Shown piece after piece: positions 21,901 to 64,000 of a DNA stretch of 64,000 nt (the first letter of the stretch is position 1; each line of letters starts with the position of its first letter). The DNA lies in NCBI GenBank assembly GCA_965229495.1, contig OZ245880.1, positions 2,357,211 to 2,421,210 of the forward strand, read 5' to 3'. The notes under the pieces were generated by a model. It was not told the DNA's origin, did no database searches, and saw only the letters and a list, made by a program, of their open reading frames with translations. Source of the DNA: Gammaproteobacteria bacterium. Its GTDB lineage: Bacteria > Pseudomonadota > Gammaproteobacteria > CBDBNL01 > G965229495. The translations under genes were made by a program, and so were the position numbers.

Positions 21901-21926
21901 CGACCCCACCAACTCCCATCCAACAC

Positions 21927-22973: not shown

Positions 22974-23290
22974 CTAATTTCCCAAACTTCTTGACGGTCC
23001 AAAACACAAGCCACCAGCTCCCCAGCCAACGACCCCCCTCATCCAACATCTCCCCAGCCAACCGCCGCCGCCAATACCCCTGAAAAGCCTGCCATTGCTC
23101 GCTCGTCGGCGCATACTCGCAATGCGCCAGCAACCAGGCACGGCTCCGCTGCAAAACCTCGCACCAGAGCAGCTCCCAATCCAGCAGCAAATCTCGCGGG
23201 CATTGCTCCCGACTAGCTTGCAGCGTCAGCATCATCTAATTTCCCAAACTTCTTCCGGCCCAAAACACAAGCCACCGGTTCCCCATCCAA
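22770..23290. repeat. Direct tandem repeat with a 262-nt period covering the prmC 5' end
   Basis: CCCAAACTTCTT ends at 22992 and again at 23254. CTAGCTTGCAGCGTCAGCATCATCTAATTTCCC occurs at 22951 and 23213. A partial third copy (CCAAAACACAAGCCACCGGTTCCCCA) follows at about 23255-23290. Confidence 0.85.
22951..23235 (-). pseudogene. Duplicated 5' fragment of prmC: start codon plus about 58 identical codons, then divergent sequence
   Basis: The 94-aa ORF begins MMLTLQASREQCPRDLLLDWELLWCEVLQRSRAWLLAHCEYAPTSEQWQAFQGYWRRRL, identical to the PrmC N-terminus. It then diverges and ends overlapping the real prmC start. Confidence 0.7.
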
Positions 23291-28590: not shown

Positions 28591-28720
28591 CATCACTTAA
28601 CAAACCACAGATACCCACATACAAGCTCAGCGCGTCAATAAACCACCTTCTGCCAAACCACCTCTCCACTCTCCACTATCAACTATCAACTATCCATTAT
28701 CAATTAACAACCCCACCGCC

Positions 28721-28996
28721 CAACCCCACAAAATTACGCTATACTCACAAAACTAAAAAATTAGTTACTCAGCAACCAGGAATAAATAATAAGGCATTAT
28801 TAAATAGGCATATATCTTATCCTGTTAAGATTTTGAAAAACCTAACAATAATAAGTTTAAGCTATATTCCTTAGCCCAAAATAAAAACTCATAGATAATT
28901 AAAGCGCCACCATCACAAATAATATAAAGCTTACATATGATCAGCCACACCAGCGGCGCACTATTAACCAAAGTCAACGCCATATCAGCAGCGACC
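28721..28996 (+). promoter_or_regulatory. Conserved AT-rich non-coding leader upstream of giant lipoprotein gene 1; its paralogous copy is at 47661-47924
   Basis: The two copies of about 270 nt align with many identities and small indels, including a 2-nt indel that rules out a shared reading frame. The region is far more AT-rich than its surroundings and contains a conserved TATACT and a TTGAAAAACCTAA box. Confidence 0.5.
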
Positions 28997-29035
28997 ATCA
29001 AATCCCCGTAGTAAAACCAAGAATAAACCACACGG

Positions 29036-29112
29036 CATCGTGGAGCGCCGACTTGTAGTCGGCATCGTGGAGCGCCGACTTGCAGTCGGCAGGAGGCGAG
29101 TTCACGAGCCTC
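29036..29112. repeat. REP doublet (H2 twice plus an H3-like hairpin) in the leader of giant lipoprotein gene 1
   Basis: CATCGTGGAGCGCCGACTTGTAGTCGGC is directly followed by CATCGTGGAGCGCCGACTTGCAGTCGGC AGGAGGCGAGTTCACGAGCCTCC. The doublet is absent from the equivalent position upstream of the paralog. Confidence 0.8.
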
Positions 29113-29206
29113 CCCACCACTCCCGTCCACCCAAGCACCTCAACTTAAACCACACAACCTCATCCCCCAAAACACCAACAACTACCAGCGCCGTCCCCCA
29201 CAATCC

Positions 29207-29254
29207 ATGCCCAAACCACTCCTCCTAGCCCTCACCCTCGCCCTCGCCGCCTGC
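29207..29254 (+). other. Lipoprotein signal peptide with lipobox L-A-A-C (Cys16) and Asp at +2
   Basis: MPKPLLLALTLALAAC|DFSSG; the TGC codon is at 29252-29254 and is followed by GAC. Confidence 0.75.
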
Positions 29255-47272: not shown

Positions 47273-47282
47273 AGCCTCTGAT

Positions 47283-47490
47283 AGCACGCTATCCTGGGAG
47301 CGGCCTGGGAGCGCGAGCGTCTCGCTCGCCGCATAAAAAGTGAGCGCGCCAGCGCTCGACCTTCAGGCAAATAAGCTGCTCTTAGCAGCGGATCCTAGGG
47401 TTGGCTGGTATCGCCGACTTGCACTCGGCATGGGGGCGGCTTGGAGCGCCGACTTGTAGTCGGCAGGAGGCGAGCTTGCGAGCCTCCCCA
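47283..47490. repeat. REP/BIME-like repeat cluster 4, at the junction between the two giant lipoprotein paralogs
   Basis: It contains an H1 hairpin GCGAGCG-TCT-CGCTCGC at 47313-47329, then ATAAAAAG and a GAGCGC-GCCA-GCGCTC hairpin at 47342-47357. H2 copies lie at 47413-47429 (hybrid arms) and 47448-47464, followed by GGAGGCGAGCTTGCGAGCCTCC. Confidence 0.85.
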
Positions 47491-47660
47491 CCACCCAACC
47501 CACCACCTCTTCCTCGCCCTGCCAGGAGCCAAGCCCACCCGCCTCCCCACCACTTCATAAAACCACAGACACACAGATACACACAAATTAACTTATCAAC
47601 ACCACAGACCCTCTGCCAAATCACCTCTCCAACCACCAATTATCCACCCTACACACCCCC

Positions 47661-47924
47661 CAACCGCACAAAATTACGCTATACTCACAAAACTAAAAAA
47701 TTAGTTTCTCAGCAACCAGGAATAAATAAAGGCATTATTAAACAGGCATATATCTTATCCTGCTAAGATTTTGAAAAACCTAATAATAATCTGTTTAAGC
47801 AATATTCCTTATGCCCAAAATAAAAAGCTCAGAAATAATTTAAGCGCCGCCAACACAAACAATATAAAGCTCAGGCACCAGCGGCGCGCCATTAACTAAA
47901 GTCAACGCCATTTCAGCAGCGACC
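47661..47924 (+). promoter_or_regulatory. Paralogous copy of the conserved AT-rich leader, upstream of giant lipoprotein gene 2
   Basis: It aligns with 28721-28996 (CAACCGCACAAAATTACGCTATACTCACAAAACTAAAAAATTAGTT...). Confidence 0.5.
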
Positions 47925-48068
47925 GACACACCTCCACAGTACAACCAACGTGGTGCCGTGTGCGTTTCGCCCGCCGTATAAGCCGTATAAAAAGTAAACC
48001 CAACAGATTCAACATCATTCCCTAAAACACCAACAACCCATCGCTGTTATCCAACACCCCACAATCCC

Positions 48069-48116
48069 ATGCCCAAATTACTCCTGCTTCTCCTCACGCT
48101 CGCTCTCGTCGCCTGC
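48069..48116 (+). other. Lipoprotein signal peptide with lipobox L-V-A-C (Cys16) and Asp at +2
   Basis: The TGC codon at 48114-48116 is followed by GAC. Confidence 0.75.
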
Positions 48117-51100
48117 GACTCCTCCAGCGTAGATACCCCAGTCTCCAGCGACGCACCGCAGCCCAACCCAGTCAGCATCACCGAAACGTCGATCACCGAT
48201 AACCAAGCCACAGTCAGTTGGAGCGCCAGCGGCCCCGAACCCGCCGAATACTGGCGCCTATATCAAAATAACCTCCTGGTCTGCTCGGCAAATCTCGACA
48301 TCGACCTCAGCGCCTCCGACACCAACGGCGACTACCAACAAAGCGACGCCTGCACACTAACCCTCGAAGAAGGCGAGAACAGCGTCTACGTCCAGCTCTG
48401 CAATTTTTTCGCCAGCGGCTCCAGCACCTGCTCGTCGTCGTCGACTGAACAAATCTTCTACGAAGCCGCCGACCCCACTCCCGGTGCCGTCTCTTGGCAA
48501 GACCTCCCCAGCAGCACCAGCGCCACCAGCATCAACGTAACCTGGCTAAAAGAAGCGGGCGGCAACGGCGACTATTGGTTTGTTTACCACAACGACGCCC
48601 AAGCCTGCACTGGCGACCTAAGCTACACCGAAGACTACGTCGCCCAAAGCGCCGATTGCGTCGTCAATCTCGACGAAGGCGTCAACCAGCTCCAAGCCGA
48701 GCTCTGCTACGACCAACCAGCCGGCATCCAAGACCTGTGCACGCAATCCGAAGTCGCCAGCGTAACCCTGGTCCTCGACCCCGCCAAAGAGCTGGCAACC
48801 CCCGTGCTCGACGCCCTCGACGAGTCCGACCACTACGCTGCAGTCGACATCAACATCAATTGGCACAAAGACACCAGCGTCGGCAGCGCCGGCGAAGATT
48901 GGTCGTTGTACAGCAACGGCGCCATCGTCTGCGAAGACCAGCTCGCCGCCGACGCCACCAGCGCCAGTTGCACAATCCAATTAACCACAGGCGACAACAC
49001 CCTACAAATCGTGCTCTGCACCGACGTCGCCACCTATTCCGGCGCCAGTTGTGCGCAATCGAACACGCTCACCGTCGCCGCCCTCGACCCCGACCCCCTC
49101 GACCCAGGAACCCCACAAATCACCAACGTCCTCCCCGCCGAAACCTTCGACAGCACCCTGGCGTTGAATTGGTCGATTGCCAGCGGCAACGGCGTCCAGC
49201 ATTGGAGCGTCGACCTGAACGGCGCCGAGCATTGCATCACCAGCAGCCCCAGCGAATACTACGAATCCGGCTCCTGCCAGCTCAACCTCGCCGTCGGCCT
49301 CAACACCATCAGCGTCAGCGGTTGCAATTATGGCTACGCCGACCGCAGCGCCTGCAGCACCAGCAATGACCTGATACTCGAGCGCATCTCGCTCCCGGGC
49401 AGCGCCGAGCTCACCTCCAGCTTACCGACCACCACCTACGATGCCGAGCACAGCCTCAGCTGGGTGCGTAGCACCGGCGCCAGCGCCGAGTACTGGTTCG
49501 CCAGCGTGCTAAGCGATTTTCACGACAACCAGTGCAATACCGAGCTCAGCGCGCAAACCCCGCAAAGCGATTCCTGCACGATCGAACTCAGCAGCGGTCA
49601 TAACGAAGTCTACGTCCAAACCTGCGTTTACAACCACAACCGCAGCTCCTCGTACTGCGCCGAATCCGACAGCCTATTCGCCGAGCTGCTAGCGCCGATC
49701 CCCACCACCCCCGAGCTCAGCACCGAATCGCAGAGCATAGCCGACGACAGCATCGAGATTAGATGGAGCAAAAGCTCGGGCGCCAACGGCAGCTATTGGG
49801 GCGCTATTAACAACGGCGGCGCCACCACTTGCTCCGATCAGCCAGTGATCACCGCTGGCGACGGCCAATCGGGCTTTTGCGACCTACCGTTGACCGTAGG
49901 CGAGAACCTGGTCAGCGTTCGCCTTTGCGCCGATAACGTCGCCGGCACCGCCTCCTGCGCCGAATCCAGCACCATCAGCATCACCCGCCTGGTCGCCTCT
50001 CCCGAATTCACCAGCTTATCGTCGGTTGCCGCCGAAGAAAACAGCACAGCGGTCTTCTACACCGCAGTTGTCGAAGACAACGACAGCAGCGCCGAGCAAA
50101 TCAGCTTCGCCCTCAGCGGCGGCGAAGATGTCGACTTCTTTCGCCTCGACAGCGCCAGCGGCGCGCTCGCCTTCCAAGCAGCAGTCGACTACGAAGCACC
50201 GCAAGACAGCGACGCCAACAACGTCTACCAACTCGACATCACAGCCACCGACGAACTCGGCAACTCGGCGCAACTCGAGCTCGCGGTCAGCCTCAACAAT
50301 ATCAACGATAACCCACCAGCCCTCACCACCCCACTGCCAACCCTCACCACCGCCGAGAACGACAGCAGCATCATCTACACCTTCACTGCCAGCGACCTCG
50401 ACGGCGACGCTCTCAGCTACAGCCTCGACGGCGCCGACGCCCAGCACTTCACCCTCGGCACCACCAGCGGCGCGCTGCAATTCGACCACGCCCCCGATTA
50501 CGAAACCCCGCTCGACGCCAACCAGGACAACGTCTACGAACTCGCCATCAGCGTCGCCGACGGCGACTATCAAAGTACCGAACAGCTCAGTATCAGCGTT
50601 AGCGATAGCAACGACGAAACCCCGCAAGCCACCAGCGCCTCCTCCATAGCGCTCGCGCTCGATAGCTTAGTCGTCGGCGCCACCGTCTACACCGTAACCG
50701 CCATTGATACCGACGCCGACGACCAAATCACCTACACCCTCGGCGGCGTCGACCAGCAACACTTCGTCCTCGGCGCCAGCAGCGGCGAACTCGCCTTCAG
50801 CCAATTACCGTCGAGCATCGACAATCCCCAGGACGCCGACGGCGACAACATCTATGAAGTAATCATCACCCTCACCGACCTCGGCGCCAATTCCAGCGAT
50901 CTCAACCTCAGCGTCAGCGTCGTCGCCATTATCGGCAATGCCCCCGAATTTGCCCAAGCCACAGCCAGCGTCGACTTCGACGAAAACGCCGTCGGCACCG
51001 TCTACACCGCCAGCGCCACCGACGCCGACGGCGACGCCCTCACCTACAGCATCGCTGGCGACGACGCCGAGCACTTCGCCATCGATGCCGCCAGCGGCGT

Positions 51101-54100
51101 CCTCGCCTTCAACTCAGCCCCCGACCACGAGCAACCCACCGACAGCGGCTTCGACAACGTCTACAACCTCATCATCGCCGCCGAAGACCCCCTCGGCAAC
51201 CAGGCGCAGCAAAGCCTAACAGTATCGGTCAACGACCTCAACGACAACCCCCCACAATTCGCCGCCAGTACAGCGGCACTCGACGCCAGCGAAAACACCA
51301 CCACCATCACCACCATCACCGCCACCGACGCCGACAGCGCCGCCGAACACGCCACCCTAACTTACAGCCTCGACAGCGGCAGCGACCTCAGCCTCTTCAC
51401 CATCGACGCTGCTAACGGCGCCCTAAGCTTCAACTCAGCCCCCGACTACGAACACCCGCACGATAGCGACCTCGACAACATCTATAACGTCAGCATCGTC
51501 GCCACCGACGGCGAGTACAGCGCCAGCCTTGGCGTCAGCGTCGTCGTCGAAGATAGCAACGACGAAGCCCCACAATTCACCAGCGCCGCCCTGGTACCGC
51601 TCGATTACAGCACCATCACCCTCGACGCCACCATCTACACCGCGACCACCAGCGACGCCGACCGCAACGACCTCATCAGCTACAGCCTCGCCACCAGCAG
51701 CGATACCGAGCACTTCAGCCTCAGCGCCAGCGGCGCGCTCGCCTTCGTCCAGCAGCCCAGCCTCGATAACCCGCAAGACGCCGACGCCGACAACGAATAC
51801 CAAATCACCATCGTCGCCACCGACCTCGGCGACAACAACAGCAGCCTCGAGCTCGCCGTCCGAGTAGTCGACGACCTCGGCAACGCCCCCGAATTCGCCA
51901 GCGCCAGCGCCAGCCTCAGCGTCGACGAAAACAACGCCAGCAGCATCTACTTCGCTCAAGCCACCGACGCCGACGGCGATACCCTGACTTACAGCATCAA
52001 CGGCGTCGATTCACACCTCTTCACCCTCGACCCCGCCAGCGGCGCCCTGAGCTTTAACCAAGCACCCGACTACGAGCAACCCACCGACAGCGGCGCCGAT
52101 AACACCTACGACCTCACCATCGCCGCCGAAGACCCCCTCGGCAACCGAGCCCAACAAAGCCTCGCCATCACAGTCAACAACCTCAACGACAACGACCCGC
52201 AATTCACCCTCAGCTCCAGCACCTTCGCCATCCCCGAAAACACCACCGCCATCACCACCATCACCGCCACCGACGCCGACCACGCCACCGAAGCCACCGA
52301 AGCCCTCACCTACACCCTCACCACCACCACCGACTCCCCCCTCTTCACCCTCGACCCCGCCAGCGGCGCCCTAAGCTTCATCTCAGCCCCCGATCACGAA
52401 GCCCCCCAAGACGCAGACACCGACAACACCTACGACCTCACCCTCAGCGTCTCCGACGGCGCCAACGCCACCAGCCAAGCCATCAGCGTAGCAGTTACCA
52501 ACGTCAACGAAGCCCCGACCTTCGCCGCCGCCAGCATCGATCTGGAGATTGACGAGAGCAGCAGCGGCGTCATCTATAGCTTCGCCGCCAGCGACCTCGA
52601 CGGCGACAGCCTCAGCTACAGCCTCGACGGCGCCGACGCCCAGCACTTCGCCATCGACTCCGCCAGCGGCGCCCTAAGCTTCCAGCAAGCCGCCGACTTC
52701 GAGTCCCCGCGCGACGCCGACGGCGACAGCGTCTACACCTTCAGCGTCGTCGCCGCCGATAGCGATTACAGCGCCAGCCAGGAAGTCAACCTCAGCGTCG
52801 CCGATAGCAACGACGAGGCGCCGCAAATCACCAGCGGCACCAGCGTCGCCGTCGATTACAGCGTCATCGTCCTCGGCGCCACCATTTACGCCGCCACTGC
52901 CACCGACGCCGATGCCAACGACCAAATCGCCTACAGCCTCGACGGCGTCGACGCCGAGCATTTCTCTATCAATATCAGCAATGGCGGCCTCAGCTTCGCG
53001 CAGCAGCCGAGCTTGGATGCGCCCGTAGACGCCGACGGCGACAATCAATACCAAATCGCCATCGTCGCCACCGACCTCGCCGCCAACAGCAGCAGCCTTG
53101 AGCTAACGGTCAACGTAATCGACGACATCGGCAGCCCGCCGCAATTCGCCACCGATACCGCCGCTGCCAGCTTCGCCGAGAACGGCGTCGGCATCGTCTA
53201 CACCGCGCAAGCCACCGACGTCGATGGCGACGTCCTCACCTACAGCATCGCCGGCACCGACGCCGCGCACTTCGCCATCAACGCCGCCAGCGGCGTAATC
53301 ACCTTCAACATAGCCCCCAACTTTGAGGCCCCGCTCGATAGCGGCTTCGATAATAACTACGAGCTCATCGTCGGCGCCCAGGATCCGGTCGGCAACCAGG
53401 GCCAGCAAAGCCTCACGGTCGCGGTGAGCAATGTCAACGACAACGACCCAGCCTTCGCCGAGGCCACCATTAGCACCACGGTCGCCGAGAACTCCCTCGC
53501 CGTCGCCAGCACCAGCGCCAGCGACGCCGACGGCGACGACCTCACTTACGCCCTCGCCACCAGTGCCGACGCCGCGCACTTCACCATCGACCCCAGCAGC
53601 GGCGTTATCGTCTTCAATTCAGAGCCCGACTACGAAGAGCCCCAGGATAGCGACGGCAACAATGTCTACGAGTTCAGCGTCATAGCCAGCGACGGCACTT
53701 ACAGCGGCGCCCAGGATTTCGCCGTTGCCATTGGCGATCTTAACGACGAAGCCCCGCAATTCACCAGCGCCACGTCCATCGCCGTCGAATACGATAGCGT
53801 CATCGTCGGCTTCTCCAGCGTCATCCTCGGCGCCGCCGTCTACACCGCGCAGACCGCCGACGCCGACGCCGGCGACCAAGTCGCCTACAGCCTCGCCGGC
53901 GCCGACGCCGGGCATTTCAATATAGACGCGACTAGCGGCGCGCTCGCCTTCAGCGCATCGCCCAGTTTAGAGAGCCCGCAAGACGCCGACGGCGACAACG
54001 AATACCAGGTCAGCATCGTTGCTACCGACCTCGCCGCCAACAGCAGCAGCTTGGATTTGAGCGTCCACGTCGCCGACGACATCGGCAGCCCGCCGGCCTT

Positions 54101-57100
54101 CGCCGCGCCCAGCGCCAGCCTTAGCATCGCCGAAAACCATAGCAGCGTCGTCTACACCGCGCTCGCCGTTGACCCCGATGCCGACGACAGCATCAGCTAT
54201 GGCGTCGAAGGCACCGACTCCGCGCTCTTCACCATCGACGCCGACAGCGGCGAACTCAATTTCCGCAACCCGCCCGACTACGAAACCCCGCTCGACGACG
54301 GCGGCGACAACACCTATGACCTCACCATCACCGCCCAAGACCTGGTCGGCAACCAGGGCCAGCAAAGTCTCACCATCACCATAACCAACCTCAACGACAC
54401 CTCGCCGCAATTCAACCTCAGCTCCAGCACTTTCACCGTCCCCGAAAACACCACCGCCGTTACCACCATCAGCGCCAGCGACGCCGACGGCGACGACTTG
54501 ACTTTAGCCTTGGTCGATAGCGGCGATTACGGTCTCTTTAGCTTCGACCCTGCCAGCGGCGCTCTCGCCTTCCAACAAGCCCCCGACCACGAGACCCCCC
54601 AGGATAGCGACGGCGACAATGCCTACGAGCTCGAACTCAGCGCCTTCGATGGCGCTCTCAGCAGCAGCCAAAGCATCACCGTAAGCGTTGCCGATGTCAA
54701 CGAAGCCCCCAGCTTCGCCGAAGCCACGATGAGCGTGGCGGTCGATGAGAACAACGACTCAATAGTCTACACTGCCACCGCCAGCGACCCCGAGCAAGCC
54801 ACGCTCATTTACAGCGCCAGCGGCGCCGACGCCGACTTATTCACCATCGGCAGCAGCGGCGCGCTCGCCTTCAACACCCCACCCGACTACGAGCAAGCGC
54901 TCGATAGCGACACCGACAACACTTACCAACTCAGCATCGCCGCCAGCGACGGCGAGTACAGCACCAGCCAGGACCTGAGCATCGCCGTCGCCGACGTCAA
55001 CGAGCCACCCAGCTTCGCCGCAGCCAGCGTCAGCCTCACAACTGCAGAAAACAATTTAAGCTTCGCCTACACCGTCGCCGCTGCCACCGACCCTGATGCC
55101 GGCGAGCAACTCAGCTACCAACTCAGCGGCGACGACCAATCGGCGTTTAGCTTTGATGCCAGCACCCTCAGGCTCGTCTTCGCTGCCACCCCCGATTACG
55201 AAAACCCCGCCGACCAAAACAGCAACAATGCCTACCAAGTCGCCATCGTCGCCAGCGATAGCGAATACAGCGCCAGCCACAGCATCGCCATCGCCGTCGC
55301 CGACCTCAACGACGAAGCCCCGCAATTCACCAGCGCCACCTCCGAGGCTATCAACTATAGCGACGTCGTCCTCGGCGCCGCCGTCTACAGCGCGCAAGCC
55401 ACCGACGCCGACGCTGATGACCAAATCACCTACGCCCTCGGCGGCGCCGACCAGCAGCACTTCGCCCTCGACGCCGCCAGCGGCGCGCTCGCCTTCGCCC
55501 AATCGCCCAGCCTGGACGACCCCCAGGACGCCGACGGCGACAATAGCTACGAGCTCATCATCACTGCCAGCGATCAAGCCAACAACAGCAGCGAGCTCGA
55601 CCTCAGCATCATCGTCGTCGACGACATCGGCAGCGCGCCGCAATTCGCCTCGGATAGCATGAGCGTCGGCTTCGACGAAGAGACCGTCGGCAATGTCTAC
55701 AACGCGCTCGCCATCGACGCCGACGTCGGCGACAGCGTCGCCTACAGCCTCTCGGGTGTTGACGCCGAGCACTTCGGCATCGACGCCACCAGCGGCGCGC
55801 TCACCTTCAACAACCCACCCGACTTCGAGCAACCAACCGACGCCGACAGCAACAACGTCTACGAGCTCGTCATCACTGCCACCGATTCCCCAGTCGGCAA
55901 CCAAAGCCAGCAAAGTCTCAGGGTTACAGTCAATAACGTCAACGACAATCTGCCAGCCTTCGACCTCTCGGCAGATGCCTTCACCGTCCTGGAGAACGCC
56001 ACCGCCGTCACCACCGTCGCCGCCACCGACGTCGACGGCGACACCCTGACCTTCGCTCTAATAACCAGCACCGACGCCGCCGCCTTCACCCTCGACCCCG
56101 CCAGCGGCGTGCTCGTCTTCACCTCGGCCCCCGACTTCGAGAACCCGCTCGATAGCAACACCGACAATACCTACGAGCTCGAGCTCAGCGTCTTCGACGG
56201 CGCCCACAGCACCAGCCAAGCCATCACCGTCGCCGTCGCCAATATCGACGAAGCCCCGAGCTTCGCCGCTGCCACTCAAGACTTGTCGGTCAATGAAAAC
56301 ACCAGCGGCAGCATCTATACCGCCCAAGCCAGCGACCCCGAGGGCGCCGCGCTCGCCTACAGCGCCAGCGGCGCCGACGCTGGACTATTTACTATTAATA
56401 ATACCAACGGCGAGCTTAGCTTCAACAGCTCACCCAACTTTGAAACCCCGCTCGACAGCGACACCAACAACGTCTACCAACTCACCATCACCGCCAGCGA
56501 CGGCGCCAACCAAGCCAGCCAAAGCATCGCCGTAACAGTGATCGACGTCAACGAGCCGCCCGCCTTCGCCAGCGCCAGCGTCGAGACCAGCAGCGTCGAG
56601 AACAACGCCAACTTTGCCTATAGCGTCGCCGCTGCCAGCGACGAAGACATCGGCGAGCAGCTCACTTACCAACTCAGCGGCGATGATAGCGCCGACTTCG
56701 ACCTCGACGCCGCCACCCACGTCCTGCGCTTCGCTGCCAACCCCGACTATGAAAGGCCCGCCGACGCCGACGGCGATAACCTCTACCAATTCAGCGTCGT
56801 CGCCTCCGATGGCGAATATCAAGCCAGCCAGGAATTCAATATCAGCGTCGGCGATATTAACGACGAAGCCCCGCAATTCACCAGCCTGAGCTCGCAGACG
56901 GTCAACTACACCACCGCCCAAGTCGGCGCCGTCATCTACACCGCCAGCGCCACCGACGCTGATTTAGGCGACCAGCTAAGCTACGCCCTCAGCGGCGCCG
57001 ACGCCGTATTATTTACTATTAATAGTACCAGCGGCGAGCTCGCCTTCGCCCAATTACCCAGCCTCACTGAATTCCAAAGCGCCGGCGGCGACATCACTTA

Positions 57101-60100
57101 TCAGTTGGTCGTCGTCGCCACCGACCTCGGCGCCAACAGCAGCGAGCTCGACCTGAGCGTCAGCCTGCTCGACGACACTGGCAACATACCCGAATTCGCC
57201 GCCGCTAGCGCCAGCGTCGATTTCGACGAAAACGCCGTCGGCGTCGTCTACAGCGCGCAGGCCACCGACGCCGACGGCGACGTCCTCGCCTACAGCCTCA
57301 GCGGCGCCGACGCCGAACACTTCGCCATCGACGCCACCAGCGGCGCGCTCGAATTCATCTCATCACCCGACCACGAGCAGCCAGCCGACAGCAACGGCGA
57401 CAACGTCTACGACCTCGCCATCGTCGTAACCGATTCCCCGGTCGGCAACCAGGCGCAGCAAAGCCTCGCGGTTACCGTCAAAAACCTCAACGACAACGAG
57501 CCGCAATTCGAGCTCAGCACCAGCTCCTTCGATGTCGCCGAGAATAGCAGAAGCGTCGCCACCATCACCGCCAGCGATGCTGATAACGATAGCCTTACTT
57601 TCGCCCTGGTCGCCAGCGCCGACTCCGGCCTCTTCACTATCGGCTCCGCCAGCGGCGCGCTCGTCTTCAACTTAAGCCCCGACTTTGAGAACGCCCAGGA
57701 TAGCGACGGCGACAACGTCTACCAACTCGAGCTCAGCGTCTACGACAACGCCTACAGCACTAAAGCCAATATAAGCGTCGCAGTAACTAACGTCGACGAA
57801 GCCCCCGCCTTCACCGTTACCAGCCAGGATTTACCCATCAATGAAAACATCAGCGGCAGCTTCTACCAGGCCCAAGCCAGCGACCCCGAAGGCGCCACGC
57901 TAACTTACAGCGCCAGCGGCGCCGACGCCAGCCTGTTCACCTTAGATAGCGCCAGCGGCGACCTCGCCTTCAACAGCTCGCCCAACTTTGAGACCCCGCT
58001 CGATAGCGACGCCGACAACGTCTACAACCTCGACATCACAGCCACCGACGGCGCCAACCAGGCGAGCCAAGCCCTCGCCATAACTATCGCCGACGTCAAC
58101 GAAGCCCCGAGCTTTACCAACACCAGCGTCAACCTCGATACCACCGAAAACGATAGTAGCTTCACCCACATAGTCGACGCCGCCACCGACCCGGATCAAG
58201 ACGAGCAGCTCACCTACGCCCTCGGCGGCGACGACGCAGCCGCTTTCGACTTCGACGCCGCCACCCGCGCCCTCGCCTTCAAGGCAACCCCCGACTACGA
58301 ATCGCCCCAAGACCAAGACAGCAACAACGTCTACCAAATAAACATCGTAGCCTCTGATAGCGAATACGATGCCGCCCAAGCCATCACCATCGCAGTCGCC
58401 GACCTCAACGACGAAGCCCCGCAATTCACCAGCGCCAGCTCCTTGGCGCTCGACTACACCGGCGTCGTCGTTGGCGCCATCGTCTACACCGCGCAAGCCA
58501 CCGACGCCGATGCTGGCGATAGCGTTGTCTACACCCTCGGCGGCGCCGACTCCAGCGCCTTCGGCTTCGACTCCAGCAGCGGCGCGCTCGCCTTCGTCCA
58601 GGCGCCGAGCTTAGAGACTCCCCAGGACGCCGACGCCAATAACATCTACCAACTCAGCATCAGCGCCACCGACCTCGCCAACAACAGCAGCGACCTGGAT
58701 TTGAGCATTAGCGTCGTCGACGACACTGGCAGCGCGCCGACATTCGACCAAGCCAGCGTTAGCATCGATGTCGACGAAAACGTCGTTGGCGCCGTCTACA
58801 CCGCGCAAGCCACCGACGTCGACCCAGGCGACAGCCTCAGCTACAGCATCGACGGCGCCGACTCCACACTTTTCACCATCGACCCCAGCAGCGGCGAGCT
58901 CGCCTTCAACCAAGCCCCCGACTACGAGAACCCCAGCGACAACGGCCAAAACAACACCTACGACCTCAGCATCACTGCCACCGACGCCATCGGCAAGCAA
59001 GCAAGCCAAAGCCTCGCCATCGCAATCAACAACCTCAACGACAACCCTCCGCAATTCGCCCTCGCCAGCAGCGCCTTCGACGTCCTTGAGAACAGCACCG
59101 CCGTCGCCACCATCGCCGCCACCGACCCTGATGGCGACGATCTCACTTTCTCTCTAACAACCACCACCGACTCTAACCTCATCACCATCGACCCCACCAG
59201 CGGCGCCCTAAGCTTCAACCAAGCCCCAGACTTCGAGACCCCCCAAGACGCCAACGCCGACAACACCTACGAGCTCGAACTCAGCGTCGCCGACGGCAGC
59301 CACACCACCACCCAGCAAATTACCATCACAGTCGCCAACGTCGACGAAGCCCCTACCTTCACCAGCGCCAACGAAAGTGTATCGGTCAACGAAAACAACG
59401 CCGCGGCGATCTACCAGGCGCAAGCCACCGACCCCGAGGACGCCACGCTCGCCTACAGCGTCAGCGGCGCCGACGCTGGACTATTTACTATTAATAATAT
59501 CAGCGGCGACCTCGCTTTCAAAAACCCACCCAGCTTTGAAAGCCCGCTCGACCAGGACGCCAACAACGTCTATGAACTTAGCATCACTGCCACCGACGGC
59601 GCCAACCAAGCCAGCCAAGCTGTAGCCGTAACCGTCGACGACGTCAACGAAGCCCCCACCTTCGCCAGCGCCAGCGTCAACCTTGATACCGACGAAAACG
59701 CCGCCAGCTTCGCCCACATAGTCGATGCCGCCGACGACGAAGACTCGGGCGATCAGCTCACCTACCAACTCGGCGGCGACGACGCAGCCGCCTTCGACTT
59801 CGACGCCAACACCCGCAGCTTAACTTTCCAACAAAGCCCCGACTTTGAAAACCCCGCCGACGACGACGCTAACAACTATTACCGCGTCAGAATCACCGCC
59901 GCTGACGCCGAGTACAGCACCACCCAAGACATCACCATCACCGTCGCCGACCTTAACGACGAAGCTCCGCAATTCACCAGCGCCACCTCCTTGACGCTCG
60001 ACTACACCGCCATCGTCGTCGGCACCAACATTTACACCGCTGCAGCCACCGACGCCGACGCCAACGACCAGGTAAGCTTCACCCTCGGCGGCGCCGACGC

Positions 60101-63100
60101 CAGCCACTTCGTCTTCGACGGCAGCAGCGGCGCGCTCGCCTTCGTCCAAGCGCCGAGCCTGGAGACTCCCCAAGACGCCGACGGCGATAACAGCTACGAA
60201 CTCGTCATCACTGCCACCGACCTCGGCGGCAACAGCACCGACCTTGCCCTCAGCATTAGCGTCGTCGACGACACTGGCAGCGCGCCGACATTCGACCAAG
60301 CCAGCGTCAGCATCGATGTCGACGAAAACAGCCCTGGCACTATCTACACCGCGCAAGCCACCGACGCCGACCCGGGCGATACCTTGTCGTACAGCATCAG
60401 CGGCGTCGACGCCGATCTATTAATCATCGGAGACAACGGCGATATTACCTTCATATATCCCCCCGACTACGAGACCCCACGCGACAGCGGCGCCGACAAC
60501 ACCTACGAAATAACCATCACTGCCACCGACAGCATCGGCAAGCAAGCCGACCAAGATCTTAGGATCACAATCCTGAACCTCAACGACAACGACCCGCAAT
60601 TCGCCCTCGCCAGCAGCGCCTTCGACGTCGCCGAGAACACCACTGCCATAACCACCGTCGCCGCCACCGACGCTGACGGCGACAGCTTTAGCTTCGCCCT
60701 GCTAAGCACAGCCGATTCCAGCCTGTTCACCCTCGACCCCAGCAGCGGCGTCCTAAGCTTCAACCAAGCCCCCGACTTCGAGAACCCCGCCGATGACAAC
60801 AGCGACAACACCTACGAACTCGAACTCAGCGTCGACGACGGCGCCAACACCAGCAGCCAAGCCATCGCCGTAACAGTAACAGACGTCGACGAAGCCCCCA
60901 CCTTCACCAGCGCCAGCGAAAGTGTCTCGGTCAACGAAAACGCCAGCGGCGCCGTCTACCAGGCGCAAGCCACCGACCCCGAGGACGCCACGCTAACCTA
61001 CAGCGCCAGCGGCACCGACGCTGGACTATTTACTATTAATAATACCAGCGGCGAGCTATCCTTTAAGCAAAGCCCCAACTTCGAGCAACCAACCGACCAA
61101 GGCGCCAACAACACCTACGAACTCACTATCACCGCCGCCGACGCCACCAACCAGGCCAGCCAAAGCCTCACCCTCACCATCGCCGACGTCAACGAAGCTC
61201 CCACCTTCGCCAGCGCCAGCGTCGACCTCAACGCCGCCGAAAACGATAGCAGCTTTACCCACGTAGTCGACGCCGCCGACGACGAAGATCAAGGCGATCA
61301 GCTCACTTACCAACTCGGCGGCGACGACGCAGCCGCCTTCGACTTCGACACTGCCACCCGCAGCCTAAGCTTCAAGCAAGCCCCCGACTTTGAAACCCCC
61401 GAAGACCAAAACACCGACAACGCCTACCAAATCACCATCACCGCCTCCGACGGCGATCTCCAAGCCACCCAAGCCATCACCGTAACAGTAACAGACGTCG
61501 ACGAAGCCCCGAGCTTCACCAGCGCCAGCGAAAGTGTCTCGGTCAACGAAAACGCCAGCGGCGCCGTCTACCAAGCGCAAGCCACCGACCCCGAAGGCGC
61601 CACGCTAACCTACAGCGCTAGCGGCACCGACGCCAGCCTGTTCACCTTAGATAGCACCAGCGGCGAGCTATCCTTTAAGCAAAGCCCCAACTTCGAGCAA
61701 CCAACCGACCAAGGCGCCAACAACACCTACGAACTCACAATCACCGCCGCCGACGCCAGCAACCAGACCAGCCAAGCACTAACCATCACCATCGCCGACG
61801 TCAACGAAGCCCCCAGCTTCGCCAGCGCCAGCGTCGACCTCAACGCCGCCGAAAACGATAGCAGCTTCGCCCACACAGTCGACGCCGCCGACGACGAAGA
61901 CTCAGGGCAAACACTCGCCTACTCACTCAGCGGTAACGACGCCAGCGACTTTAACTTCGACACTGCCACCCGCAGCCTAAGCTTCAAGCAAGCCCCCGAC
62001 TTTGAAAACCCCATCGACACAGACGCTAACAACGAATACTTGGTCACCATCACCGCCTCCGACGGCGAGCTTCAAGACACCCAAGCCATCACTATCACAG
62101 TCACCAACGTCGAAGAGGATCCGTATTTCCACAGCACCGACGACTACGTCGACAGCATCGCCGAAGACCCAGCGACCGAAGGCACGGCGTCGCCAGTGCT
62201 GGTGCTCCACATCCAAGCCGCCGACGACGAAGACGACGCTGCTGTCAAAATTCTGTACTTCACCATCAGCGGCGGCGTCGACTCCGATAAATTCATCTTG
62301 AATGCAGTCGACAGGAATTCCGCCAACCTCTCCTTCGACATCTCACCCGATTTCGACAACCCGCACGATTCCAACCTCGATAACAACTACAGCCTGACCA
62401 TCCAAGTCGAAGACAGCGACGGCGACACCGCGCAGCACGACCTCATCGTCGCAGTGCAAGCCGTCAACGACGAAGCCCCGCAACTCACCAGCGCCAGCTC
62501 TGCCGACGTCAACGAAAACGACACCGCGGTCTTCTACGTAGCCACAGCCGAAGACGCCGACCGCAGCGATTGGTCGGACCCGGACTCCAGCAAGCACTAC
62601 CAGCTCAACCTTGATACCCTAACCTTCAGCCTCGACTCCAGCAACTACCCCGACTCCAGCTTCTTCGCCATCGACGCCAGCAGCGGCGAGCTCCAAGCCG
62701 CCAGCGGCCTCGACTACGAAAACCCCCAAAGCAGCGCGCAGAGCAACAACTACACCGTCGGCATCAAAGTCGCCGACCAGGCTGGCAACAGCAGCACCAG
62801 CGCCATAACCATCACCGTAATCGACGACCCCGACGAAAGCGAGGTCATAGAAATAGCCGAATCCGGCCCGCAAATACCCTGGTTCTATAGCGATGTCGCC
62901 GTCGGCGAGTCCATCGATATACCCTGGGTCATCTATTCTGGCGATGGCGCTATTGCTTGGACCCTTTACGTCAATGGCAATCCAGTCTGCAGCGAAAGCG
63001 CCAGCATCAGCGACCCAGCCACCAGCGGCGTCTGCAGCGTCTCCAGCAGCAACCTCACCTCTGGCAGCATTCTCAACAATACCGCCGTCTCGGTAACCTA

Positions 63101-64000
63101 CAGCGATAACAGCTCCGAGCTCTCCGACGAAGTTAGCTTCGCCTACGCTGCCAGCAGCGCCATCAGCTACCCATCGCCCAGCAGCAGCCAGGCCGCCACC
63201 GCTTGCTCAGGCGTCGACACTGGCGACCCAGTCAACGCCAATGAAAACTCAGCTTGCTACGACTACCTGCTCGGCGACGACGACTTCGGCGGTCCCCACG
63301 ATCAGGTGCCCTCGTATCTAGACCCGGCTAACGGTCGCGACTTTGAAGTAATCGCCTACTTCATCGAGTGGGGCATCTACGAACGCGATTTTCAGCCTGC
63401 CGATTTACCCGCCAACCTATTGAGTACGGCGTTGTTCTCCTTCGTTAAATTCAAAGGCGACGACGCCGCCGATCCGAATTGCGAGACTTGTAGTTTTACT
63501 GGTGAAGTCGACCTGGCTGATGGTTGGGCTTCCCTTAGCAAAAGCTACGCTACCGATGCCTGGTGCGATATAAATTATGAGGACTGGACTGTTGATAGTG
63601 CTTGCAAAGCTAACGGCATATTCAAACAATTCTGGCTGCTCAAGCAAAAATTCCCCCACCTGAAAACCTGCGTCTCGGTCGGCGGCTGGAGCTTCTCGCG
63701 TCCCTTCCCGCTAGTAGCAGAAGACGCCACCAAACGCGCGACTTTCGCTAAGTCCGTAGTCGATATGGTGGAGAAATACCACTTCGATTGCATCGATATC
63801 GACTGGGAGTTTCACGTCATCGGCGGCGGCGACTACGTAGTTACCGATGCTTCTGGCAACCCCAGCTACGACTACGACCTCGACGGCAATACCCCCTTCC
63901 TCGCGCCTTCGGCGAACGACGCGCAATACTTCGCCGATTTAATCCAGAAATTGAAAACAGAGATCGACGAACGCGGCCTCAGCATTGACATCAACTCGGC
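48069..64000 (+). CDS. Giant lipoprotein paralog, 3'-partial (>5310 aa): ChiN-like x6, cadherin-like x about 41, one ChiN-like module and a GH18 chitinase catalytic domain
   Basis: The ORF is not listed in the ORF track. The ATG at 48069 is followed by MPKLLLLLLTLALVAC|DSSS. The first 3.3 kb is nearly identical to 29207-32550. The track lists no ORF of 60 aa or more in this frame (start coordinate divisible by 3) anywhere in 48069-64000, which is expected only if the frame stays open to the window edge. I translated 62820-63998 by hand and found no stop codon. Confidence 0.85.
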   Translation, partial: MPKLLLLLLTLALVACDSSSVDTPVSSDAPQPNPVSITETSITDNQATVSWSASGPEPAEYWRLYQNNLLVCSANLDIDLSASDTNGDYQQSDACTLTLEEGENSVYVQLCNFFASGSSTCSSSSTEQIFYEAADPTPGAVSWQDLPSSTSATSINVTWLKEAGGNGDYWFVYHNDAQACTGDLSYTEDYVAQSADCVVNLDEGVNQLQAELCYDQPAGIQDLCTQSEVASVTLVLDPAKELATPVLDALDESDHYAAVDININWHKDTSVGSAGEDWSLYSNGAIVCEDQLAADATSASCTIQLTTGDNTLQIVLCTDVATYSGASCAQSNTLTVAALDPDPLDPGTPQITNVLPAETFDSTLALNWSIASGNGVQHWSVDLNGAEHCITSSPSEYYESGSCQLNLAVGLNTISVSGCNYGYADRSACSTSNDLILERISLPGSAELTSSLPTTTYDAEHSLSWVRSTGASAEYWFASVLSDFHDNQCNTELSAQTPQSDSCTIELSSGHNEVYVQTCVYNHNRSSSYCAESDSLFAELLAPIPTTPELSTESQSIADDSIEIRWSKSSGANGSYWGAINNGGATTCSDQPVITAGDGQSGFCDLPLTVGENLVSVRLCADNVAGTASCAESSTISITRLVASPEFTSLSSVAAEENSTAVFYTAVVEDNDSSAEQISFALSGGEDVDFFRLDSASGALAFQAAVDYEAPQDSDANNVYQLDITATDELGNSAQLELAVSLNNINDNPPALTTPLPTLTTAENDSSIIYTFTASDLDGDALSYSLDGADAQHFTLGTTSGALQFDHAPDYETPLDANQDNVYELAISVADGDYQSTEQLSISVSDSNDETPQATSASSIALALDSLVVGATVYTVTAIDTDADDQITYTLGGVDQQHFVLGASSGELAFSQLPSSIDNPQDADGDNIYEVIITLTDLGANSSDLNLSVSVVAIIGNAPEFAQATASVDFDENAVGTVYTASATDADGDALTYSIAGDDAEHFAIDAASGVLAFNSAPDHEQPTDSGFDNVYNLIIAAEDPLGNQAQQSLTVSVNDLNDNPPQFAASTAALDASENTTTITTITATDADSAAEHATLTYSLDSGSDLSLFTIDAANGALSFNSAPDYEHPHDSDLDNIYNVSIVATDGEYSASLGVSVVVEDSNDEAPQFTSAALVPLDYSTITLDATIYTATTSDADRNDLISYSLATSSDTEHFSLSASGALAFVQQPSLDNPQDADADNEYQITIVATDLGDNNSSLELAVRVVDDLGNAPEFASASASLSVDENNASSIYFAQATDADGDTLTYSINGVDSHLFTLDPASGALSFNQAPDYEQPTDSGADNTYDLTIAAEDPLGNRAQQSLAITVNNLNDNDPQFTLSSSTFAIPENTTAITTITATDADHATEATEALTYTLTTTTDSPLFTLDPASGALSFISAPDHEAPQDADTDNTYDLTLSVSDGANATSQAISVAVTNVNEAPTFAAASIDLEIDESSSGVIYSFAASDLDGDSLSYSLDGADAQHFAIDSASGALSFQQAADFESPRDADGDSVYTFSVVAADSDYSASQEVNLSVADSNDEAPQITSGTSVAVDYSVIVLGATIYAATATDADANDQIAYSLDGVDAEHFSINISNGGLSFAQQPSLDAPVDADGDNQYQIAIVATDLAANSSSLELTVNVIDDIGSPPQFATDTAAASFAENGVGIVYTAQATDVDGDVLTYSIAGTDAAHFAINAASGVITFNIAPNFEAPLDSGFDNNYELIVGAQDPVGNQGQQSLTVAVSNVNDNDPAFAEATISTTVAENSLAVASTSASDADGDDLTYALATSADAAHFTIDPSSGVIVFNSEPDYEEPQDSDGNNVYEFSVIASDGTYSGAQDFAVAIGDLNDEAPQFTSATSIAVEYDSVIVGFSSVILGAAVYTAQTADADAGDQVAYSLAGADAGHFNIDATSGALAFSASPSLESPQDADGDNEYQVSIVATDLAANSSSLDLSVHVADDIGSPPAFAAPSASLSIAENHSSVVYTALAVDPDADDSISYGVEGTDSALFTIDADSGELNFRNPPDYETPLDDGGDNTYDLTITAQDLVGNQGQQSLTITITNLNDTSPQFNLSSSTFTVPENTTAVTTISASDADGDDLTLALVDSGDYGLFSFDPASGALAFQQAPDHETPQDSDGDNAYELELSAFDGALSSSQSITVSVADVNEAPSFAEATMSVAVDENNDSIVYTATASDPEQATLIYSASGADADLFTIGSSGALAFNTPPDYEQALDSDTDNTYQLSIAASDGEYSTSQDLSIAVADVNEPPSFAAASVSLTTAENNLSFAYTVAAATDPDAGEQLSYQLSGDDQSAFSFDASTLRLVFAATPDYENPADQNSNNAYQVAIVASDSEYSASHSIAIAVADLNDEAPQFTSATSEAINYSDVVLGAAVYSAQATDADADDQITYALGGADQQHFALDAASGALAFAQSPSLDDPQDADGDNSYELIITASDQANNSSELDLSIIVVDDIGSAPQFASDSMSVGFDEETVGNVYNALAIDADVGDSVAYSLSGVDAEHFGIDATSGALTFNNPPDFEQPTDADSNNVYELVITATDSPVGNQSQQSLRVTVNNVNDNLPAFDLSADAFTVLENATAVTTVAATDVDGDTLTFALITSTDAAAFTLDPASGVLVFTSAPDFENPLDSNTDNTYELELSVFDGAHSTSQAITVAVANIDEAPSFAAATQDLSVNENTSGSIYTAQASDPEGAALAYSASGADAGLFTINNTNGELSFNSSPNFETPLDSDTNNVYQLTITASDGANQASQSIAVTVIDVNEPPAFASASVETSSVENNANFAYSVAAASDEDIGEQLTYQLSGDDSADFDLDAATHVLRFAANPDYERPADADGDNLYQFSVVASDGEYQASQEFNISVGDINDEAPQFTSLSSQTVNYTTAQVGAVIYTASATDADLGDQLSYALSGADAVLFTINSTSGELAFAQLPSLTEFQSAGGDITYQLVVVATDLGANSSELDLSVSLLDDTGNIPEFAAASASVDFDENAVGVVYSAQATDADGDVLAYSLSGADAEHFAIDATSGALEFISSPDHEQPADSNGDNVYDLAIVVTDSPVGNQAQQSLAVTVKNLNDNEPQFELSTSSFDVAENSRSVATITASDADNDSLTFALVASADSGLFTIGSASGALVFNLSPDFENAQDSDGDNVYQLELSVYDNAYSTKANISVAVTNVDEAPAFTVTSQDLPINENISGSFYQAQASDPEGATLTYSASGADASLFTLDSASGDLAFNSSPNFETPLDSDADNVYNLDITATDGANQASQALAITIADVNEAPSFTNTSVNLDTTENDSSFTHIVDAATDPDQDEQLTYALGGDDAAAFDFDAATRALAFKATPDYESPQDQDSNNVYQINIVASDSEYDAAQAITIAVADLNDEAPQFTSASSLALDYTGVVVGAIVYTAQATDADAGDSVVYTLGGADSSAFGFDSSSGALAFVQAPSLETPQDADANNIYQLSISATDLANNSSDLDLSISVVDDTGSAPTFDQASVSIDVDENVVGAVYTAQATDVDPGDSLSYSIDGADSTLFTIDPSSGELAFNQAPDYENPSDNGQNNTYDLSITATDAIGKQASQSLAIAINNLNDNPPQFALASSAFDVLENSTAVATIAATDPDGDDLTFSLTTTTDSNLITIDPTSGALSFNQAPDFETPQDANADNTYELELSVADGSHTTTQQITITVANVDEAPTFTSANESVSVNENNAAAIYQAQATDPEDATLAYSVSGADAGLFTINNISGDLAFKNPPSFESPLDQDANNVYELSITATDGANQASQAVAVTVDDVNEAPTFASASVNLDTDENAASFAHIVDAADDEDSGDQLTYQLGGDDAAAFDFDANTRSLTFQQSPDFENPADDDANNYYRVRITAADAEYSTTQDITITVADLNDEAPQFTSATSLTLDYTAIVVGTNIYTAAATDADANDQVSFTLGGADASHFVFDGSSGALAFVQAPSLETPQDADGDNSYELVITATDLGGNSTDLALSISVVDDTGSAPTFDQASVSIDVDENSPGTIYTAQATDADPGDTLSYSISGVDADLLIIGDNGDITFIYPPDYETPRDSGADNTYEITITATDSIGKQADQDLRITILNLNDNDPQFALASSAFDVAENTTAITTVAATDADGDSFSFALLSTADSSLFTLDPSSGVLSFNQAPDFENPADDNSDNTYELELSVDDGANTSSQAIAVTVTDVDEAPTFTSASESVSVNENASGAVYQAQATDPEDATLTYSASGTDAGLFTINNTSGELSFKQSPNFEQPTDQGANNTYELTITAADATNQASQSLTLTIADVNEAPTFASASVDLNAAENDSSFTHVVDAADDEDQGDQLTYQLGGDDAAAFDFDTATRSLSFKQAPDFETPEDQNTDNAYQITITASDGDLQATQAITVTVTDVDEAPSFTSASESVSVNENASGAVYQAQATDPEGATLTYSASGTDASLFTLDSTSGELSFKQSPNFEQPTDQGANNTYELTITAADASNQTSQALTITIADVNEAPSFASASVDLNAAENDSSFAHTVDAADDEDSGQTLAYSLSGNDASDFNFDTATRSLSFKQAPDFENPIDTDANNEYLVTITASDGELQDTQAITITVTNVEEDPYFHSTDDYVDSIAEDPATEGTASPVLVLHIQAADDEDDAAVKILYFTISGGVDSDKFILNAVDRNSANLSFDISPDFDNPHDSNLDNNYSLTIQVEDSDGDTAQHDLIVAVQAVNDEAPQLTSASSADVNENDTAVFYVATAEDADRSDWSDPDSSKHYQLNLDTLTFSLDSSNYPDSSFFAIDASSGELQAASGLDYENPQSSAQSNNYTVGIKVADQAGNSSTSAITITVIDDPDESEVIEIAESGPQIPWFYSDVAVGESIDIPWVIYSGDGAIAWTLYVNGNPVCSESASISDPATSGVCSVSSSNLTSGSILNNTAVSVTYSDNSSELSDEVSFAYAASSAISYPSPSSSQAATACSGVDTGDPVNANENSACYDYLLGDDDFGGPHDQVPSYLDPANGRDFEVIAYFIEWGIYERDFQPADLPANLLSTALFSFVKFKGDDAADPNCETCSFTGEVDLADGWASLSKSYATDAWCDINYEDWTVDSACKANGIFKQFWLLKQKFPHLKTCVSVGGWSFSRPFPLVAEDATKRATFAKSVVDMVEKYHFDCIDIDWEFHVIGGGDYVVTDASGNPSYDYDLDGNTPFLAPSANDAQYFADLIQKLKTEIDERGLSIDINS
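48165..49990 (+). other. Six ChiN-like four-Cys modules (near-identical copy of 29306-31136)
   Basis: Nucleotide alignment with the paralog shows only scattered substitutions. Confidence 0.5.
49995..62835 (+). repeat. About 41 tandem cadherin-like repeats
   Basis: I counted 41 boundary motifs, running from NNINDNPPAL (near 50300) through VVDDTGSAPTF (near 58725 and 60275) to QAVNDEAPQL (near 62470) and VIDDPDESE (near 62825). Confidence 0.8.
62870..63140 (+). other. ChiN-like module immediately upstream of the GH18 domain
   Basis: Hand translation gives IPWFYSDVAVGESIDIPWVIYSGDGAIAWTLYVNGNPVCSESASISDPATSGVCSVSSSNLTSGSILNNTAVSVTYSDNSSELSDEVSFAY. Confidence 0.45.
63342..64000 (+). other. Glycoside hydrolase family 18 (chitinase) catalytic domain; N-terminal part only, as it continues past the window
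   Basis: Hand translation gives FEVIAYFIEWGIYERDF...ALFSFVKF...KTCVSVGGWSFS (SxGG motif at 63675-63692)...VEKYHFDCIDIDWEF. The DxxDxDxE motif spans 63786-63809, with the catalytic Glu codon at 63807-63809. Confidence 0.8.

Follow-up and report, generated by a model that had tools for sequence, protein, structure and literature searches.

What kind of protein opens with a lipoprotein signal and enters a chitinase domain only some thousands of residues later, and what would a bacterium do with it? This question is raised by the end of a 64,000-nucleotide stretch of DNA (hereafter the window), where the plus strand from 48069 to 64000 translates as one frame of 5310 codons with zero stops that is ended by the window edge. 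A preliminary description of this DNA had pointed at the gene and at its absence from the list of open reading frames; both statements hold, and the sole reason for the absence is that the frame runs off the window end. We combined profile searches, structure prediction and the comparison with metagenomic relatives in order to characterize the encoded protein, its missing end and its possible mode of action.

A giant open reading frame starts with a lipoprotein signal

Past the in-frame stop ending at 47990, the earliest start codon is the ATG at 48069, and the product begins with MPKLLLLLLTLALVAC. The 5310 residues encoded in the window account for 553.6 kDa, scaling to ~620 kDa at full length, and are highly acidic, with 867 Asp and Glu compared with 66 Lys and Arg. 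The gene probably encodes, in this stretch, the first 5310 residues of an extracytoplasmic lipoprotein of roughly 5950–5970 residues, which can be divided as follows.

48069..48116, plus strand: signal peptide and lipobox L-V-A-C16 with Asp at position +2, read from the translation
48153..49994, plus strand: base of six tandem four-Cys beta-sandwich modules of ~100 residues, aa 29–642, distantly ChiN-like (Cys count, HMM, AF2 and Foldseek)
49995..62771, plus strand: stalk of 41 contiguous cadherin-like repeats, aa ~626/643–4901, with a five-repeat super-period (HMM built from the protein itself, PF00028)
62847..63152, plus strand: seventh module, aa 4927–5028, with two Cys, lying directly before GH18 as ChiN does in ChiA (module HMM)
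63153..63335, plus strand: linker, aa 5029–5089, with two conserved Cys (5046 and 5063), both invariant when the family tails are aligned
63336..63998, plus strand: N-terminal ~45% of a GH18 domain, aa ~5090–5310, cut by the window end (PF00704, PDB matches and motifs)

The N-terminal sequence MPKLLLLLLTLALVAC16 contains Lys3, an 11-residue hydrophobic core and then L-V-A-C, agreeing with the bacterial lipoprotein pattern of a basic N-terminal residue, a hydrophobic core and a [LVI][ASTVI][GAS]C lipobox, as had been supposed at first reading. The lipobox is kept in a paralog encoded upstream and in five full-length relatives (P0003, P0004, P0005, P0006 and P0008; see below), with D, E or S at position +2 across the family. 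Under the E. coli rule, Asp at +2 directs inner-membrane retention, and it is the classical Lol-avoidance signal in Enterobacteriaceae; on these grounds the protein might not get past the inner membrane or the periplasm, or might be cleaved off as a free enzyme, rather than being tethered at the surface. We regard this as very improbable: a periplasm ~25 nm wide has no room for 41 repeats and seven more domains in extended form, the +2 residue is variable in the family, and Klebsiella PulA, a surface lipoprotein glycosidase, carries Asp +2 yet is displayed at the surface by type II secretion. By analogy with PulA, the Asp suggests inner-membrane retention followed by type II secretion for the window protein as well. 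PulA differs in being a stalkless GH13 enzyme of ~1100 residues, and the window gene has no type II secretion genes near it.

Six four-cysteine modules form the base

Past the lipobox Cys, exactly 24 Cys follow in six groups of four between residues 72 and 630, and the next one is residue 4974; apart from the lipobox, Cys in this protein are thus confined to the modules and the head, which, like the acidic composition, speaks for an extracytoplasmic location. The modules of the base are read as carrying disulfides. A single module HMM recovers the six N-terminal copies (E 1e-32 to 1e-35) together with the seventh copy at aa 4927–5028 (E 9e-26), and also matches the seventh-module equivalents of the relatives, which were left out of model building, at E 1e-12 to 1e-14.

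The preliminary description had named these modules ChiN-like. Their number and their 24 Cys stand, whereas the name is imprecise as far as the modules of this protein are concerned, the best of which scores 18.1 bits against PF08329 (ChitinaseA_N; cutoff 21.2), the other six giving no match. Support for the likeness comes from the family and from the fold. A homologous module in P0008 reaches 24.0 bits, above the cutoff, and six of 35 family modules match PF08329 at E <= 0.01, this being the only family matched. A profile built from the seven modules found no ChiA in the PDB; with a profile of 35 modules, the top 15 PDB matches are all ChiA N-domains, at marginal E-values of 0.02–0.04 and with a shared SW...NG...LCN...C...S pattern in the alignment. 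The AlphaFold (AF2) model of module 1 (pLDDT 93.6) is all-beta with eight strands, and a Foldseek search of the PDB with this model places Vibrio and Serratia ChiA on top (E 6e-3, TM 0.5–0.63), generic FN3/Ig folds following close behind. Profiles and predicted fold together point to distant relatives of ChiN, the relationship being remote but consistent. Because the same base occurs in the paralog, which is not a chitinase, its six modules more likely have a structural role than serve as an array for chitin binding.

The stalk consists of 41 cadherin-like repeats

About 41 cadherin-like repeats had been counted by inspection. An HMM built from the protein itself sets the number at exactly 41 abutting repeats of ~100 residues, spanning aa 626–4901 with gaps of 2–4 residues, and a 1000-residue sample of the stalk matches PF00028 (cadherin) in eight stretches with E 5.9e-68. 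Acidic motifs of the types ExN, DxD, PDYE and DxNDxxPxF recur throughout the alignment of the 41 repeats, and the composition of the stalk is extreme (721 Asp and Glu vs 36 Lys and Arg). Repeat-to-repeat identity is ~50% at lags of 5, 10 and 15 compared with ~40% at other lags, revealing a super-unit of five repeats.

Recent amplification and faulty assembly were considered as origins of the stalk, and we rejected both: the units are only ~40–50% identical at the protein level, and TRF reports a single short 303-nt array of 3.4 copies. An assembly artefact is further disfavoured by P0004, which derives from a separate ENA contig and has the same 41 repeats. Judged by the divergence of its units, the stalk is old and without recent amplification.

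The head enters a GH18 chitinase domain and very probably continues into GH19

Directly behind the seventh module and the linker, the translation matches PF00704 (GH18) with E 2.2e-27 and 97 bits against a cutoff of 29.6, covering profile positions 2–139 of 317, and this part of ~220 residues matches PDB chitinases at E 1e-22. The motif YFIEWGIYERDF lies at nt 63357, SVGGWS at nt 63675 (aa 5203–5208; SxGG span 63675–63692) and FDCIDIDWE at nt 63783 (aa 5239–5247; DxxDxDxE span 63786–63809); the catalytic motifs SxGG and DxxDxDxE are invariant in the family alignment. The ChiA-like cassette described earlier, a ChiN-like module before a GH18 with these three motifs, is confirmed, and so is the GH18 match expected from an HMM search of the translation from 63342 onwards. 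The NCBIfam library yielded a weak ChiD match only, contigs of GTDB genomes and JGI metagenomes contained only ordinary chitinases of ~600 residues with at most 36% identity (34–36% for the planctomycete ones), and a megablast search of the window against plasmids gave no match. The source contig was absent from the genome, metagenome and protein collections searched, and an exact look-up of the RlmH encoded in the window also gave no match.

Relatives, which a word-indexed protein search had missed, were identified by an exhaustive HMMER search of 1.84 billion representative proteins. Seven giants match the whole cassette at 46–55% identity.

P0003, 3085 aa
P0004, 5952 aa
P0005, 4282 aa
P0006, 3665 aa
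P0007, 1566 aa, a fragment
P0008, 2779 aa
P0009, 2064 aa, with truncated tail

All six relatives with an intact N-terminus share the lipobox, the six modules with 24 Cys in total and the cadherin-like repeats. The repeat number ranges from 9 to 41 by HMM, protein length suggesting about 10–25 for the shorter members, and the layout of P0004 equals that of the window protein. The tails, in turn, are constant in length, with 1048–1070 residues in six of the seven giants, the exception being the truncated P0009. Nine related tails for which a Pfam scan or precomputed Pfam annotation is at hand all hold a complete GH18 followed by GH19 (PF00182); these include P0003, P0007 and P0008, scanned here with GH18 covering profile positions 2–317, as well as P0187, P0188 and P0189 from the precomputed set. 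In P0004, GH19 motifs are recognizable by eye in the tail. Against the PDB, the profile of the family tail finds GH18 at E 1.7e-54, with Paenibacillus ChiW as the best match, and GH19 at E 1e-44, with plant-type chitinases as the best matches. An AlphaFold model of the complete homologous head of P0188, computed from a five-sequence alignment, had a mean pLDDT of 41.

These tails bear on the statement that GH18 sits at the distal end of the protein, which is probably incorrect: GH18 would not be the tip, because the related tails continue through a full GH18 into GH19. Since the tail length of the relatives is constant, ~650 residues are expected past the window. We consider it very probable, by homology with these tails, that the gene runs ~640–660 codons further and ends in GH18 plus GH19, at a full length of ~5950–5970 residues. 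The tails of the relatives stop about 50 residues past GH19, and contain neither a terminal hydrophobic segment nor an RTX, HemolysinCabind or sorting domain detectable by Pfam. By their sequence, the relatives are without a C-terminal anchor, with the distal end free.

A tandem of GH18 and GH19 could also serve as a contact weapon or host-remodelling tool, acting at a distance on the cell walls of chitin-bearing organisms such as fungi and diatoms, or on a chitinous host matrix. GH19 is present in all relatives examined, the GH19 family also includes lysozyme-like enzymes, a predatory role has been proposed for giant hydrolase-bearing proteins of Omnitrophota, and the lineage, which is uncultured, is recorded from a single type of metagenome assembly. 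Toxin, immunity or secretion-system genes are not adjacent, however, the GH19 domains match plant-type chitinases best, and in one lineage the catalytic Glu of GH19 seems to be missing. We therefore hold a role as weapon or remodelling tool to be improbable.

An unannotated family of giants in metagenomes

In the collection searched, the giant family occurs only in ENA metagenome assemblies, with no entry annotated, and was not found among NCBI- or UniRef-sourced entries; because of this absence it is currently invisible to annotation. Intact open reading frames of ~2775 and ~3665 residues recur in 15–16 members of two clusters, on contigs of up to 4.3 Mb, those of 3.6 and 4.3 Mb representing complete genomes, and the chitinase gene and its paralog show a dN/dS of 0.22 over 1140 codons. 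Both the recurrence of intact frames and the low dN/dS indicate that the gene family is real and under selection. The cassettes of different lineages are 54–67% identical, that of the window representing one more lineage.

The preliminary description knew of no described enzyme with such a layout. The protein is not unique, since it belongs to this unannotated family and shares its 41 repeats with P0004, and its novelty is further tempered by smaller published precedents (PMC2386152, PMC5132251). Our literature search found no description of giants combining cadherin repeats with a chitinase, or GH18 and GH19 with cadherin repeats. What we found no description of is the scale of 41 repeats and ~6000 residues, a stalk of this kind topped by GH18 plus GH19, and a base of ChiN-like modules.

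Single members of the family deviate from the common layout. P0003 carries a YHYH domain (PF14240) inserted in the stalk at residues 1443–1648. The GH19 domain of the P0008 lineage reads AHTTA where other members have SHETT or SQETH, and may have lost the catalytic Glu. On contigs of two relatives (L086, 2–13414; L087, 6179–14701), gene calling splits the homologous giant gene into two or three fragments separated by short gaps, which could be errors of long-read assembly or real decay.

A paralog combines this base and type of stalk with a different head

Upstream of the chitinase gene, the window contains a second giant gene of the same type, and both genes are preceded by a similar AT-rich block.

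29207..47272, plus strand: paralog of 6021 aa with the same lipobox and base, 31 cadherin-like repeats and another head (alignment, HMM, Pfam)
47654..47948 (approximate), plus strand: ~300-nt AT-rich block preceding the chitinase gene, >90% identical to the block of the paralog by pairwise alignment
~28715–29020: matching AT-rich block upstream of the paralog, >90% identical

Paralog and chitinase protein are 94% identical across the first 1147 residues. The paralog has 31 repeats by the same self-built HMM, and its tail consists of Cys-containing FN3-like repeats (PF00041) and an Lcl_C/DUF1566 domain (PF07603). A related break is seen in P0004. Its identity to the window protein is 85–97% throughout most of base and stalk, some 200-residue segments being lower at 73–79%, and drops to ~50–55% from residue ~4940, where the cassette starts. 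This mosaic suggests that the head was replaced by recombination. The same base and stalk bear different heads, which appear to be exchanged by recombination, and the arrangement looks like a modular platform of a conserved base and stalk with exchangeable heads. The shared AT-rich block is a candidate for regulating both genes in common; the sequence preceding the chitinase gene showed no sigma-70 consensus. In the paralog, REP-like units are inserted between the AT-rich block and the start codon.

The suggestion that the paralog and the first open reading frame of the window (ORF1) belong to the same surface apparatus holds for the paralog, which has the base, the type of stalk and the upstream block in common with the chitinase gene. 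For ORF1 it lacks supporting evidence, the protein being without such repeats and almost without recognizable domains.

3–20294, plus strand: ORF1, a third giant of 6763 aa, whose N-terminus may be cut by the window start

In ORF1, the first ~4660 residues gave no Pfam match, and no cadherin-like repeats were found; the C-terminus contains a PQQ-like beta-propeller and K319L-like PKD domains.

The head of the paralog is of the adhesin type, which raises the possibility that the chitinase protein, too, is mainly an adhesin or matrix fibre, attaching the cell to chitin, to a host or to sister cells via Ca2+ contacts, with hydrolysis being secondary or aiding penetration by the head. The layout resembles that of giant repeat adhesins, the genomes of relatives encode other giants with eukaryote-like domains, and a survey for chitin-uptake, GlcNAc-catabolism and secretion genes adjoining the gene in the window or those of its relatives found none. 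Against a mainly adhesive role speak the GH18 motifs, which are strictly invariant across lineages only ~55% identical, and the retention of two different chitinase families in tandem. As both features argue for selection on catalysis and not on binding alone, we judge a mainly adhesive role to be rather unlikely, if better founded than that of a weapon.

Comparison with known chitinases, surface glycosidases and adhesins

By its sequence, the head is ChiA-like, a ChiN-type module being followed by a ChiA-type GH18. ChiA of S. marcescens and V. harveyi likewise has a beta-sandwich module directly before a GH18 with SxGG and DxxDxDxE motifs; its N-domains are the top fold and profile matches for the module, and ChiA catalytic domains match this protein at E 1e-15 and the family profile at E 1e-36. 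Identity to ChiA is low, nevertheless, and the modules described here carry four Cys. ChiA is a free secreted enzyme of ~560 residues, whereas the window protein exceeds this length roughly tenfold and adds a lipobox, six further modules at the other end, 41 cadherin repeats and, by analogy with its relatives, GH19. The nearest named relatives in a word-indexed search are Flavobacterium ChiA proteins (28–29% identity), which are large multi-domain chitinases; F. johnsoniae ChiA (~1578 aa) is secreted by the T9SS and released, and is without lipobox, cadherin array and GH19.

With respect to the stalk, the closest parallels are MpIBP, SiiE and LapA, type I-secreted rods of hundreds of nm made from ~100-residue Ig- or cadherin-like repeats that are stiffened by Ca2+. 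As in the window protein, functional domains are distal and the other end is held at the cell. These adhesins have no Sec signal, carry C-terminal RTX/T1SS signals and bear binding domains at the tip but no enzymes; the window protein, by contrast, combines a Sec/lipobox signal with enzymes at the tip, and the tails of its relatives lack RTX, which sets it apart from T1SS RTX adhesins.

ChiW, the best PDB match of the family tail profile (5gzt/5gzu), is anchored by SLH domains. It is a cell-surface multi-modular chitinase of Paenibacillus sp. FPU-7 with two catalytic domains, kept on the cell so that chitin is degraded there (PMC5132251), and differs from the window protein in its Gram-positive host, in having two GH18 domains instead of GH18 plus GH19, in its size (solved chain of 1136 residues) and in the absence of a cadherin array. 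In the marine gammaproteobacterium Saccharophagus degradans, glycoside hydrolases are fixed to the outer membrane through a lipobox, and some have a cadherin-like domain between lipobox and enzyme, as in Lam81A (LPB/CAD/GH81/FN3/FN3, 1238 aa); one lipobox chitinase is also reported (PMC2386152). These enzymes have one cadherin-like domain compared with 41, are five times shorter and are without the ChiN-like base and the GH18 plus GH19 head, and S. degradans is not a close relative of the source organism. The giants of Omnitrophota have quite different architectures. Surface-anchored glycosidases and giant repeat adhesins are thus already known kinds of protein, of which the window protein is a variant and not a categorically new type.

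Proposed function: a chitinase held at the end of a long tether

Taken together, we interpret the protein as a tethered, long-reach chitinase. We regard this as the best reading, with a probability of roughly 60%, where both surface tethering and chitin degradation are predicted from domain content and homology. After Sec export, Cys16 would be acylated, holding the protein by its N-terminus, and the surface would be reached either via type II secretion, as for PulA, or via Lol and a further surface-exposure step. In calcium-rich water, the acidic stalk would bind Ca2+ and stiffen. A value of ~4.5 nm per repeat is established for classical EC domains, and at this spacing 41 repeats would extend over ~185 nm, or about 200 nm including the base. 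The head, which, judging from the relatives, would continue with the remainder of GH18, then a linker rich in Ser and Gly, and GH19, could bind and cleave chitin on particles or on other chitinous surfaces with its distal end free. The enzyme would not be lost by diffusion, and the cell would probably be tethered to its substrate as well. Capture of the products near the cell, a benefit proposed earlier, does not follow if the head is ~200 nm away; keeping the enzyme and reaching further are easier to defend as benefits.

A wider interpretation is that an uncultured gammaproteobacterial lineage uses such proteins as an "enzyme on a pole" platform, in which a lipid-anchored base and a Ca2+-stiffened stalk of ~10–41 repeats would hold swapped heads up to ~200 nm out; we put this forward tentatively, at somewhat less than even odds. 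Of similarly provisional standing is the corresponding view of the heads, of which there would be two so far, a dual GH18 plus GH19 chitinase and an FN3/Lcl_C adhesin, swapped by recombination on a nearly identical base and stalk.

Microbial ecology has long divided the enzymes of particle degradation into those held at the cell and those set free in the water. Placed on a stiff tether ~200 nm from the cell, a chitinase would take an intermediate position, reaching into a porous particle or across a capsule or host matrix while the enzyme is kept. If the platform interpretation is true, it would amount to a third extracellular-enzyme strategy between surface-bound and freely released enzymes. 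The idea is testable through the variation in stalk length (about 10–41 repeats), the two-family head and the exchange of heads on a conserved stalk. The two families are mechanistically different, GH18 chitinases being retaining and GH19 chitinases inverting. With ~620 kDa and roughly 50 domains, the protein would, moreover, be exceptional in size among Sec/lipoprotein substrates of Gram-negative cells, posing the question of its export and display.

Source organism and genomic surroundings

A housekeeping block in the window comprises prmC, an amino-acid-binding protein gene, proA, nadD, rsfS and rlmH, in an order that we take to be gammaproteobacterial; the source is read as an uncultured gammaproteobacterium of marine type. 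The ENA proteins closest to ProA are 97%, 77% and 62% identical, and its nearest named relatives, at ~53–55%, are from Thalassolituus, Venatoribacter, Amphritea and "Gammaproteobacteria bacterium" MAGs. In the relative with 97% ProA identity, synteny with the window is lost after proA. The genomic contexts retrieved for the giant family are all from one ENA long-read assembly, ERZ25074195, an accession mentioned in no paper that we found. The lineage seems to be rich in giants with eukaryote-like domains. Contigs of related organisms from this assembly further encode a Roco-type LRR-Roc-COR protein (L088, 19944–21293) and a protein of >3800 residues with FN3, TSP3, pentaxin and LamG domains (L089, 7280–16981).

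Rfam gave no match at gathering score anywhere in the window. REP-like GC-rich palindromes, e.g. GGAGCGCCGAGTTGTACTCGGCAGGAGGCGAGCTTGCGAGCCTCC, are packed in the intergenic regions 20295–21926, 27571–29206 and 47273–47560, with 6–7 copies per region arranged in composite repeats of ~230–250 nt that give rise to many spurious open reading frames on both strands. The prmC gene (21927–23235, minus strand) contains a Gly-rich low-complexity insertion, and its first ~59 codons are duplicated immediately upstream, where an open reading frame at 22951–23235 opens with the same peptide, MMLTLQASREQCPRDLLLDW...
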